Shown one piece after another: positions 5,868 to 52,559 of a DNA stretch of 64,000 nt. Source of the stretch: an archaeon. Lineage in GTDB: Archaea; Nanobdellota; Nanobdellia; SCGC-AAA011-G17; VGLX01. The position numbers and the translations under genes were made by a program. The stretch is from the NCBI GenBank assembly GCA_043810595.1, contig JBDRNX010000032.1, positions 38,219 to 102,218 of the forward strand, read 5' to 3'. How positions within the stretch are numbered: the first letter of the stretch is position 1; the number at the start of each line of letters is the position of its first letter. The notes beneath the pieces were generated by a model, which worked only from the letters and a program-made list of their open reading frames with translations, made no database searches and was not told where the DNA came from.

Positions 5868-6082
5868 TTATTATTGTTTAGTATTCACTCCAAAATATAT
5901 CTTCCAGCCACTAGACATCCCGACACTTGTGCACAAATTGTTTATAAGCAACCTAGTCTACTGCTATATTACCTCGTGAAACAAGTTCCGAAGAGGGGGG
6001 TAAAGATGATAAAAGATGTGTGCAACACAAAAGGCTCATTCTTACCTGAAATAAAATGCGAAAGCAAAGGAGGTATTTGAAA

Positions 6083-6367
6083 ATGGCAGATAGGCCTATA
6101 GAAAAGTGGAGGATCGGCAACATAGAGGCCGCCCTCTGGGAAAATAGGAGGACCATGAACGGTGATGAAGTCACCTACTGGACTGTCTCGTTGGGCAGAA
6201 GCTTTAAAAAGAAGGACGAAGGCATATGGCGTAACGAAGTGATAAACAACCTGAGGAGGAATGATATACCAAAGCTGATTGCAATCCTTCAGAGGGTTCA
6301 GGACCACTTGTATTTTAATCTAAACAAAGACAAAGAAGCCAAGGAAGAAGTTGAGGATGAGGAGTGA
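6083..6367 (+). CDS. Hypothetical small protein
   Basis: ORF preceded by GGAGGTATTTGAAA ribosome-binding site. No recognisable family. Confidence 0.4.
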   Translation: MADRPIEKWRIGNIEAALWENRRTMNGDEVTYWTVSLGRSFKKKDEGIWRNEVINNLRRNDIPKLIAILQRVQDHLYFNLNKDKEAKEEVEDEE

Positions 6368-6376
6368 GGTGGAAGC

Positions 6377-7405
6377 ATGAAAGATGAAAAGGTGGTGAAG
6401 GAAGAGGTTGTTGAGGAAATTTCTGAAGCTCCAAAAAAAGAGAGGAAAGAAAAGAAGAAGAAGGAAGAACTGACAATCTATAACCTTCCAGGTGTTGGTG
6501 CTGCTACTGCGGAAAAGCTTTTGGAATCTGGTTACAGCGATTTGCTTTCTATTGCCGTTTCCTCTCCCGGAGAGCTTGTTGAGGTTGCTGGTGTGGGTGA
6601 GGCTGCTGCTAGGAAGATGATTAACTTTGCAAGGAATTCTTTTGATATGGGTTTTGAGTCAGGAGATGAACTTCTTAGAAAAAGAGAGAACATAGTTAAG
6701 ATAAGCACGGGAAGCAAGACTTTTGATGGGTTGCTCGGCGGCGGCTTTGAATCTGGTTCCATCTCAGAATGTTTTGGTGAGTTTGGTGCAAGCAAGTCAC
6801 AGATTGCTCACGCGCTTGCTGTTAACGTTCAGTTGCCCAGAGAAAAAGGTGGTGCTGAGGGTACAGCAGTCTTCATAGACGGCGAGTCAACCTTCAGGCC
6901 TGAGAGGATAGTGCAGATTGCTAAGGCAGCCGGTATTGATTCCAATCAGGCGTTGAAGAACATTAAAGTGGCTCGTGCTTTTAACAGCGATCATCAGATG
7001 TTGCTTGCTGAGAAGACTGAAGAGTTGATTAAGGAAAACAACGTTAAGTTGATAATTATAGATTCCTTGACATCCCACTTCAGGGCAGACTTCGCAGGCA
7101 GGGGCCAGCTTGCTGATAGGCAGCAGAAGTTGAACAAGCACATGCATACGTTGATGAGGTTGGCTTATAAGTACAACATCTGTATCTATGTTACCAACCA
7201 GGTGATGGCAAGGCCTGATGTTTTCTTCGGAGACCCTACTGCTGCTATCGGAGGTAACATAGTTGGGCATAACTCTCAAACAAGAATTTACCTGAGGAAA
7301 GGTAAGAAGGGTACTAGGGTTGCTAAGCTTATAGACAGTCCCCACCTTCCTGACGGCGAAGCTGTATTTATGGTCACTGAGGGAGGCATCAGGGACATTG
7401 ACTAA
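6377..7405 (+). CDS. radA: DNA repair and recombination protein RadA
   Basis: N-terminal HhH domain ([20 protein letters not shown]). RecA core with [37 protein letters not shown] and [27 protein letters not shown] motifs. The Walker A is atypical (GEFGASKS). Confidence 0.9.
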
Positions 7406-9542: not shown

Positions 9543-9634
9543 TGCCCCCGCTGGGATTTGAACCCAGGCCACAAGCTGTTTGCATATAGATTATTCCGCA
9601 AGCTCGCATACTATCCAGGCTATACTACGAGGGC
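9543..9634 (-). tRNA. tRNA-Arg(GCG) with ~18-nt intron at the canonical 37/38 position
   Basis: Hand-folded. Acceptor GCCCTCG/CGGGGGC. T-arm CTGGG-TTCAAAT-CCCAG. Anticodon stem CGAGC/GCTTG with loop TTGCGG plus insertion AATAATCTATATGCAAAC. A TTTAAAA box lies about 30 nt upstream. Confidence 0.65.
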
Positions 9635-32231: not shown

Positions 32232-35200
32232 TTGAAAAAATCCACTAAAAAGGTGATATACTTTATTTCTATAGCTATTTTGCTCATTTTTTTGGTAGTT
32301 TTAAGCTCTTCGTGTGACGATGATAAAGACGATTATTGTAGGGCCCCGAAGACTATTATGGGCTATTGTCACACAGAATGCGGTTCTCCTGCTGAATGTC
32401 ACCTTGCATACCCTGGTGATATAGGTACTGGTTGCAAGTTCGGGCAAGTATGTAATGATAATTGTCAGTGTGAGTGGGTGGACCAGGATTTAGATGGTTT
32501 TCCTTCCAAGAACATAGGATACATGCATTATACCAAGGATTGTGACGATAAAGACCCCACTGTTTTCCCTGGTGCTCCTGAGATTTGCGACAACAAGGAT
32601 AACGATTGTAATAATAAGGTTGACGTAGATGAGGGCGGTGTTTGTGATAAGCATGTTTATTTCTGTAAGTCTGATAACTTTAATACCCCCCTTGAAAGTT
32701 GTACCGATGGTCTGTGGTGTTCTGCTGAAACCATTAATACTTCAGCTGCTTGCAAATACACCACCACAATTGGGGATATAGGCACTCAGCCAGTTAAGAC
32801 TTTTGTTTGTGACAACTTCTTCCAGGACGGTGACTACGGTTGTTACAAGTTCGTTAACGGAGCGTTTAGTGTTGTGACTAGTTGCGATAACGATAACGAG
32901 CTTGATGAAACTGAAGAATGTGACGGCACTAATCTCGATGGTAAGAGTTGTGAATACTTCGGTTATTTAGGTGGAACTCTGAAGTGTGACAGGTGTACTT
33001 TTGACTTTGATGATTGTACAGGTGTTGTTTGCGATCATGATAATTTCAAGGATCCTGGTGAGGAATGTGACGGCACCGATTTGAACGGTAAGACTTGTCA
33101 GTATTTCGGTTTGCCTGGAAACGTCTTGACTTGTAACGATGTTTGCTTGTTTGATAAGAGGGGCTGTACAGGTGGTGTTGCTGAGTGTGGTAATAACGTT
33201 GTTGAAGCTGGTGAGACTTGTGACGGCTTCAACTTGAACGGTATGACTTGCAGTGATTTCGATTCTTACACAGGGGGCACTTTGGTTTGTAATGCGCCAG
33301 GTACTGTTAAGGAATGTCATTTCAACACAGCCAGTTGTACTCCTGATAATCCAGGCATCTGTGGTAATAATCAGATAAATGATGGTGAGGAGTGTGACGG
33401 CATGAATCTTGATGGTAAGAGCTGTACAGACTTTGATAATTTCATCAGCGGTTCTTTGAGTTGTTATCCTCAGGGTAACGCTCTTGCTTGTCTACTTGAT
33501 ACAAGTCAGTGTGTCGCTCCTCAGCCCGTCTGCGGTAACGCAATAGTGGAGTCTGGTGAGGAGTGTGACGGTTCAAATCTGAACGGTCAGTCTTGTACCT
33601 CTATGGGCTTTGCTGGTGGTACTTTGTTGTGTGAGGTTGATTGCAGCTATGATTACAGCAGCTGTGAGAGCGTATCTTGTGATAACGATAACGCTGCCGA
33701 GCCTGGCGAGGCTTGTGACGGTACGGATCTCGATGGCAGGATTTGTCAGTTCTTCGGCTTTACTGGCGGAACTCTTGAGTGCAGTAATAATTGTGAGTTT
33801 AATTTCACTAAATGTAATAATTATGTATGTGATAATGATGGGGTTGCTGAGCCTGGCGAGGTTTGTGACGGTGATGATTTGAGGGATTGGACTTGCAATG
33901 ACTTGGACATGTTCACGGGAGGCCTGTTGCAATGTACTGATCTGTGTATGTTTGACAGGAGTGAGTGCAGTTTGATTTGTGATAACAATAACGTCGCTGA
34001 ATCTGGTGAGGAGTGTGACGGCAGTGACTTGAGAGGCAAGGACTGCAGTAACTTCGGAAGGTTCGGCGGATTCCTTCTTTGTAGCTTGTCATGTAAGTAT
34101 GACCTGGGCAGTTGCGGTCCTTCCTGTTTGGAGGATTGGGATTGTACTGCTTGGACGAACTGTTCCAAGATGTCCGATAACACAACTAGGGTTTGTACAG
34201 ACTTAACTGGTTGTGGTACTGAATATTCGAAGCCTAACGAGTTGAAGCCTTGTGACCCCGCAGTATGTGTAGATGATGATAACGATGGTTATTGTGCTTG
34301 CTTCGGTGATGCTGTTGGTTGCGATTGTGATGATACCCTTGCTGCGATACATCCTGACGCTAATGAGCTTTGCAACGGTGAGGATGATAATTGTGATGCC
34401 ACGATTGATGAGGGATGCCCTTGCGAGTTTAACACCACACGTATTTGCGGTGTTGATGAGGGTTTGTGCAGGGAAGGCATCCAGCGCTGCTTGAACGGCT
34501 TCTGGAGTTTCTGTAGCAGTAACTACATAGGTCCAAGACCGGAAGTTTGTGATAACGGTTTGGATGAGGATTGTGATGGTTATCCTGATGATGGTTGTAT
34601 CTGTGAGAATAATGCCACGCAGGAATGCGGCACAGATGTTGGTGAGTGTGAGAAGGGTACTCAGATTTGTTTCGGAGGTAACTGGACTGCTTGTTCAGGT
34701 GCCAAGACTGAAACTGCTGAGGTTTGCTCAGGTAAGAAGGATGAGGACTGTGATACTTTAATAGATTGTGATGATGATTCTTGCTTGATCAGCTCGGTTT
34801 GTGAAGATGGCGGTCCGGGTGGGCCAACTCCAACCTGCTTTGATAAGACTAAGAACCAGGGTGAGGAGGGCGTTGATTGTGGAGGTCCGTGCCCTGCTTG
34901 TCAGGAACTTTGTGGTTATGGCGAGATAACTTCCGAATGTTTGTGCGAAAGCGTTAAGAGAACTTCGGGTTACTGTTGCGGCGGCAATAGGTATCAGATT
35001 AATTCTTGCACATCTGGTTGTACAGATTCTGATGGGGATACTTTGTGTGATGAGGATGAGATACGTGACGGTACAGACCCGAACAATCCCGATACTGATG
35101 GTGATGGAATTAACGATAATGAGGACAGCTGGCCTCGCTGCAACCAGGACGGGAAGTGTGACTCTTCAAAAGATTACCCTGAAGACGCTGATAACTGTCC

Positions 35201-43572: not shown

Positions 43573-43686
43573 GCCTCAGTAGCTCAGTCAGAAGAGCGAA
43601 AAATTCACTTGATGGATTTGCTCAGCTGCCTTGTAACTGAGCCGGAAAGCAGTAGGTCGGGGGTGCGAATCCCTCCTGAGGCTCCA
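43573..43686 (+). tRNA. Intron-containing tRNA with genomically encoded CCA. Anticodon tentatively UGU (Thr); one or two introns.
   Basis: Hand-folded. Acceptor GCCTCAG/CTGAGGC. D-arm GCTC-AGTCAGAA-GAGC. T-arm GGGGG-TGCGAAT-CCCTC. 3' TCCA. ~38 extra nt between the D-arm and the variable loop. A TTTTAAA box lies about 28 nt upstream. Confidence 0.55.
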
Positions 43687-52364: not shown

Positions 52365-52367
52365 AGA

Positions 52368-52451
52368 TGCGGGAGACAGGATTTGAACCTGTGCAGGCAC
52401 TAAGCCACACGGCCCTGAACCGTGTTCGTTTGGCCGCTCCGACACTCCCGC
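52368..52451 (-). tRNA. tRNA-Leu(CAG), type II with long variable arm
   Basis: Hand-folded. Acceptor GCGGGAG/CTCCCGC. Anticodon arm CACGG-TTCAGGG-CCGTG. Variable arm GGC-TTAGT-GCC. T-arm ACAGG-TTCAAAT-CCTGT. A TTTAAAA box lies about 30 nt upstream. Confidence 0.75.
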
Positions 52452-52559
52452 ATATGTAGTATTGAGAAAACTTGGTCTTTAAAACTTTTTGTAAAGTCAT
52501 GATAAAACTTATTTTGTAGAATAATAATACTTTTAAATTGGTTATTCGCTAAATATTTT

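Follow-up and report, generated by a model that had tools for sequence, protein, structure and literature searches.

Whether a RadA recombinase can do without the glycine that stands before the Walker A lysine, a residue among the most conserved of P-loop proteins, is the question raised by the radA gene of a 64,000-nucleotide stretch of archaeal DNA (contig JBDRNX010000032.1 of assembly GCA_043810595.1; hereafter the window, meaning the whole of this stretch). The gene occupies positions 6377-7405 on the forward strand, as a listed open reading frame (ORF) of 342 aa plus stop. Its P-loop, GEFGASKS (aa 134-141; ggt gag ttt ggt gca agc aag tca), lies at 6776-6799, exactly where and as the first-pass annotation had read it. 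The residue immediately before the lysine (K-1, position 139) is Gly in the canonical GxxxxGK[ST] and is here Ser, encoded by AGC at 6791-6793. A strict test for the Walker A motif is failed by the window protein, in which the Lys and the Ser/Thr are nevertheless kept. The annotation had called the loop non-canonical, which is correct for the serine at K-1 but not for the one at K+1, since GKS is an accepted variant of GKT. The answer proposed here is that the protein is, with high probability, a functional RadA with an active ATPase, in which Ser139 is a clade-specific P-loop variant that is tolerated or mildly favoured. Any effect on nucleotide affinity or turnover would be modest at most.

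The serine is the rule among the nearest relatives. Of the 120 nearest protein clusters, made at 90% identity, drawn from NCBI, JGI, ENA and Logan assemblies and 69-93% identical to the window protein, 100 have Ser at K-1, 17 Gly and three Ala, which bears out the earlier suggestion of a lineage-specific P-loop, of the form GxxGxSK[ST]. In a wider set of 80 loci from GTDB species representatives (59-75% identity) Gly is found in 56, Ser in 22 and Ala in two. The serine codons of these loci come from both families (AGC 5, AGT 1, TCA 9, TCT 7), and the alanine codons GCA and GCT also occur. At the level of individual relatives, a JGI locus 89% identical to the window protein (L081) reads GCA AGC AAG TCT across this part of the P-loop. 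Two separate Logan runs (L082 and L083) each hold a relative at 82% identity, and the DNA, read for L082, encodes the same Ala-Ser-Lys-Ser as GCG TCA AAA AGT. Passing between AGC and TCA takes at least two nucleotide changes, so the serine has been retained while its codon was replaced. The dN/dS ratio between the window radA and L081 is 0.054, which indicates strong purifying selection on the gene. Because independent assemblies carry Ser, and a relative uses the other Ser codon family, the G139S replacement is judged on these codons to be real and clade-wide, and sequencing error, which the annotation had raised as a reservation, is excluded.

How unusual the replacement is can be seen at greater distance. 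When 1.84 billion 50%-identity representatives were searched, the matches covered RadA/Rad51 broadly; 71 of normal length were aligned, and in 62 of these K-1 is Gly. The nine others comprise four with Ser, one with Ala, one with Cys and three fragments; one of the four Ser representatives (P0240) has an aberrant motif from which the Lys is absent too, and one Ala-type outlier among the 50%-identity representatives comes from a metagenome-assembled genome (MAG) of Diapherotrites. When positions at least 80% conserved in the broad RadA/Rad51 set were screened for those at which most of the window's clade has another residue, T130S, G139S and E238D were the only ones returned. On the strength of that screen, G139S is the one radical change among the highly conserved positions. 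A general loss of P-loop glycines in this genome was considered and rejected, as both signal recognition particle (SRP) GTPases in the window are canonical, the FtsY-type GTPase retaining GINGSGKT and SRP54 retaining GLFGSGKT; as far as these P-loops tell, the K-1 change is confined to RadA.

In every other respect the protein matches its family, and the annotation's description of an otherwise canonical RadA, with helix-hairpin-helix (HhH) domain, Rad51 core, Walker B sequence LIIIDS, loops L1 and L2 and C-terminal block, was confirmed in each part. The two NCBIfam RadA equivalog models give 471.4 bits (NF003301, cutoff 259) and 464.7 bits (TIGR02236, cutoff 361.15), whereas the Rad51 and Dmc1 equivalog models are matched under their cutoffs (330 against 478 bits and 332 against 448). 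The HhH domain (aa 36-86, 6482-6634; Pfam HHH_5, E 1.3e-10) is followed by the Pfam Rad51 core (aa 102-340, E 4.7e-94), an order with which the secondary structure of an AlphaFold2 (AF2) model agrees, and the best match in the PDB is RadA of P. furiosus (1pzn, E 3.4e-118). By these scores and this domain order, the window gene is an ordinary, strongly conserved archaeal RadA ortholog. The identical protein has an NCBI entry, 'MAG: RadA [archaeon]', from a contig of 105 kb. The P-loop deviation, common as it is to a clade, thus bears on how the motif is defined and not on orthology. The relatives are labelled Woesearchaeota, Nanoarchaeota or Nanoarchaeia, and on the basis of those labels the source is a DPANN archaeon of Woesearchaeota / Nanoarchaeia type.

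The functional parts of the protein, all encoded on the forward strand, can be followed from end to end. A Lys/Glu-rich N-terminal tail (aa 1-33, 6377-6475) is predicted by AF2 to be disordered, with pLDDT of 27-34 over about residues 1-30. The annotation was right that this extension of about 33 aa exists but gave it too much weight, as it is not unusual: its length varies among relatives, homologs spanning 314-353 aa, and RadA of P. furiosus, whose alignment starts at its residue 4, has a comparable one. The linker between the two domains carries G-F-E-S (aa 92-95, 6650-6661), of which G92 and F93 are invariant in the alignment of the clade (A1); FKSG is the segment of M. voltae RadA opposite it in the alignment, and the linker motif is presumably the counterpart of the RadA/Rad51 FxxA/G polymerisation motif. 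Beyond the P-loop lie the strand I-D-G-E ending in the catalytic Glu170 (aa 167-170, 6875-6886; IDTE in canonical RadA/Rad51), the Walker B segment LIIIDS (aa 225-230, 7049-7066) with an invariant D229, and T-N-Q-V (aa 273-276, 7193-7204), invariant at all four positions in A1, whose conserved Gln opens the DNA-binding loop L2. Invariance in A1 extends to K140, D168, E170, D229, T273, N274, Q275, H298 and D320, and E170, D229, Q275, H298 and D320 all have aligned positions in the solved RadA structures. The AF2 model, built with a 55-sequence alignment, is confident over the P-loop blocks (pLDDT 87 for aa 131-140 and 97 for aa 141-150), and predicts loop L2 (278-297) to be disordered, as expected when DNA is absent. 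Ahead of the gene, GAGGTGG at 6366-6372, 4 nt 5' of the radA ATG, resembles a Shine-Dalgarno sequence and may serve as one.

Given that all but residue 139 is canonical, the protein would be expected to form ATP-dependent filaments on single-stranded DNA (ssDNA) as other RadA proteins do. The HhH domain and core would polymerise on ssDNA by way of the F93 motif, and the P-loop (aa 134-141) would bind ATP where two subunits meet. At this site Lys140 and Ser141 would hold the beta and gamma phosphates and Mg2+, Glu170 would activate the water, and Asp229 of Walker B together with Gln275 would complete the site, while loops L1 and L2 would bind the DNA. The backbone amides of the P-loop should still bind phosphate, and the side chain of Ser139, as it is likely to be positioned, would be sterically tolerated in the way seen in MCM4. 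The human MCM4 chain in the PDB has GDPGTSKSQ, and human MCM2 has GDPGTAKSQ. The window RadA conforms to the shared pattern G-x-x-G-x-[A/S]-K-S-Q and has no MCM domain, so that the resemblance is one of motif only. MCM2 and MCM4 are active ATPases. As they have Ala or Ser before the Lys, a change at K-1 need not impair catalysis, and ATP hydrolysis is taken to be retained in the window RadA. To have a comparison from within the lineage, the related loci were searched for an MCM gene, and none was found there.

Several considerations weigh against so benign a reading. A passage of PMC5240526, citing Konola et al. 1994, counts G66, G71, K72 and T73 of E. coli RecA as conserved P-loop residues. 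A structural survey of P-loop NTPases (PMC9599734) assigns to the glycines at K-1 and K-6 the bending of the loop, and to the one at K-1 the stabilisation of an alpha-phosphate oxygen. Outside the DPANN group, moreover, Gly is close to exceptionless, to judge from the 62 of 71 broad representatives and from the three fragments among the nine exceptions. Some functional cost or change at K-1 is possible.

The explanation that comes nearest to competing takes the opposite view of Ser139, as adaptive. On this view the serine would make ATP turnover slower or different in some other way; these small-genome archaea might, for instance, have stabler filaments of the Dmc1-like or Ca2+-Rad51-like kind. 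Framed for the whole lineage, a selected Ser139 would alter the RadA ATP cycle throughout a large DPANN clade, through an MCM-type P-loop and different filament dynamics, and maybe in concert with a clade-specific small protein encoded directly upstream of radA. Either version is unlikely, if not negligibly so. Fitch parsimony was used to trace the history of position 139 on a crude neighbour-joining tree, which comprises 270 sequences and is rooted with a Rad51-like group. It places Gly at the root and a large clade of about 115 tips, the window protein included, in which almost all have Ser. This near-fixation, maintained through a switch of Ser codon family, speaks for adaptation, as do the later changes close to the ATP site in the same clade (T130S, E238D and T169G, the last turning IDTE into IDGE) and the fact that the residue replaced is the one that normally contacts the alpha-phosphate (PMC9599734).

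The same tree also shows the site reverting, however. About 23 changes at position 139 are reconstructed within the DPANN group, a count that is indicative at this resolution, and a 13-member Gly subclade is nested within the Ser clade, where it probably arose by reversion. A separate group with GQYGSSKT likewise has Ser. The position appears to switch between Gly, Ala and Ser, all of them small, with Ser predominant in the window's clade; such toggling between GGN, GCN and AGY or TCN agrees with the codon data, and Ala intermediates are among the states found. Ser is first seen on a background that is canonical at T130, T169 and E238, and the patterns are equally compatible with near-neutrality. 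The tolerated or mildly favoured variant remains the preferred interpretation.

The associated changes were also examined as possible partners of Ser139. Position 139 was compared with every other column by mutual information and cross-tabulation, which gave T130S, T169G and E238D as associates. At least 10 GTDB loci combine Ser139 with T130, T169 and E238, all three in their canonical state, and S130/G169/D238 persist in the Gly revertants. No obligatory compensatory partner was therefore found, and a candidate role for the three changes as such was rejected; their association with Ser139 is phylogenetic. Among the 120 closest relatives, 98 have Gly at position 169, 13 have Ser and nine have Thr; in the broad representatives this residue is mostly Thr. 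E170 is present in 119 of the 120. IDTE is near-universal in RadA/Rad51 and IDGE is the form in the window's clade; as the states are distributed, the change from IDTE to IDGE came after the P-loop serine and was kept in the Gly revertants.

A less viable proposal sees in the gene a paralog, decaying or accessory and either RadB-like or dead as an ATPase, while a canonical RadA elsewhere does the work. It draws on the fact that 64 kb of the genome was examined, and on a second RecA-family gene that 16 of 80 related loci have in the vicinity of radA. These second genes are on the opposite strand, 2-7 kb away, and encode proteins of about 235 aa that have a canonical GPAGSGKT and are about 25-30% identical to the window RadA. 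The one copy tested, from L071 (11341-12075, minus strand), scores 220 bits on the RadB equivalog model TIGR02237 (cutoff 172.4) and is a RadB; those of L009 (9432-10130) and L064 (15355-16059), also on the minus strand, are further examples. The window protein, for its part, exceeds the RadA cutoffs and reaches 125 bits on the RadB model, under the cutoff; unlike RadB, it possesses an HhH domain, and it is under strong purifying selection. RadB neighbours Gly-type as well as Ser-type RadA. Searching the whole 64-kb window with RadA by tblastn revealed no second RecA-like gene, an exact look-up of the window protein gave no result, and within 10 kb of radA no RadB was found in loci of the window's own clade. 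The RadB-like paralog that the annotation had entertained is accordingly very improbable. The weakest proposal, that a true GGC was misread as AGC, has a single G-to-A step and the metagenome-assembled origin of the contig in its favour, and is reduced to a vanishing probability by the 100 of 120 closest relatives, from independent projects, that share the Ser, and by a TCA codon (L082) that no single error could produce from GGC.

A separate feature of the broad collection concerns inteins. Many 50%-identity RadA representatives (P0125-P0270, for instance P0129, P0130 and P0150; also L087 4257-6737) are 600-1390 aa long and contain inteins, in many cases placed so that they directly follow the P-loop Lys (GK|C). 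Ser or Ala stands at K-1 in some of the intein-bearing hosts (YASAK|C, YGSSK|C, FASSK|C), one of which comes from a Diapherotrites MAG.

In the literature on RadA, DPANN, Woesearchaeota and Walker A, no published description of a Ser-type RadA P-loop was found. A 2026 preprint on archaeal recombinase diversity surveyed 621 DPANN RadA proteins with the DNA-binding loops, not the P-loop, as its topic, and removed sequences 'missing Walker A/B motifs'. Strict Walker A filters in such pipelines would wrongly drop Ser-type RadA. The wider meaning of the case is that an otherwise textbook RadA clade, under strong purifying selection and with Ser or occasionally Ala at K-1, shows the RecA fold to tolerate this change. 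The natural Gly, Ser and Ala variants form a set with which the role of K-1 in ATP binding, hydrolysis and filament turnover could be tested. The value of the observation is modest because MCM already shows Ala or Ser at K-1 to be compatible with an active ATPase, and its novelty is limited to a P-loop variant that is apparently undescribed but precedented.

Directly upstream of radA lies the small gene mentioned above, on the same strand. The mechanical ORF runs from 6056 to 6367; the alignment suggests a start at the ATG at 6083, giving a gene at 6083-6367 for a protein of about 94 aa, the stop codon of which is ten bases ahead of the radA start. The protein has an acidic C-terminal tail, and has no match in Pfam or NCBIfam. 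With a profile built from a 38-sequence alignment of this small protein, 78 of 82 related loci were found to have a homolog upstream of radA in the same orientation, and searches from two distant members of the family each land beside a radA, one of them intein-containing. Some 1.5-2.5 kb upstream of the pair, several loci have a gene of about 325 aa (1544-2530 in both L084 and L085, 562-1527 in L087) with faint OB-fold matches (tRNA_anti-codon, Rep_fac-A_C), the product of which is possibly an RPA-like ssDNA-binding protein. The gene pair is also present in many third-party-annotation (TPA) MAG records named 'uncultured Methanosarcinales archaeon' (L011, L018, L019, L025, L035, L037, L038 and others). 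Their RadA falls within the Woesearchaeota/Nanoarchaeota group, and from this placement the labels are probably wrong.

Elsewhere in the window, two Rfam tRNAs for which ARAGORN gives no report, at 9543-9634 (minus strand, 92 nt) and 43573-43683 (plus strand, 111 nt), may be intron-containing archaeal tRNAs. A tRNA-Leu called by ARAGORN at 52366-52452 is not in the Rfam gathering list. A Cys-rich module, EECDG(T/M)(N/D)L(D/N)GK(S/T)C, is repeated at least three times at about 32925-33420 (plus strand) within a 1128-codon ORF; it surfaced only through its mimicry of the GK[ST] pattern.

Set beside known systems, the window protein is closest to archaeal RadA itself, as represented by P. furiosus (1pzn), S. 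solfataricus (2bke) and M. voltae (1t4g), with which it shares architecture and length and aligns over the full length (E 1e-101 to 1e-118). The HhH domain, F-motif linker, Walker B, catalytic Glu, TNQ, loops L1 and L2 and the C-terminal LRKG...DSPHLP are all held in common. The differences are GEFGASKS in place of GEFGSGKT, IDGE in place of IDTE, and the conservative T130S and E238D. Archaeal RadB (TIGR02237) shares the RecA-family core, but has no HhH domain, is about 235 aa long and about 27% identical to the window RadA, and keeps GPAGSGKT. The P-loop of E. coli RecA, GPESSGKT, is at the homologous position in the same fold, and the equivalent of its Gly71 is Ser clade-wide in the window's group. 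MCM proteins belong to the same broad (ASCE) class of P-loop ATPases and have the same G-x-x-G-x-[S/A]-K-S-Q pattern as the window RadA, yet MCM is an AAA+ hexameric helicase, whereas RadA is a filament of the RecA fold, and homology between the two is limited to the P-loop fold. The likeness between the window RadA and MCM is convergent and at the level of the motif only.
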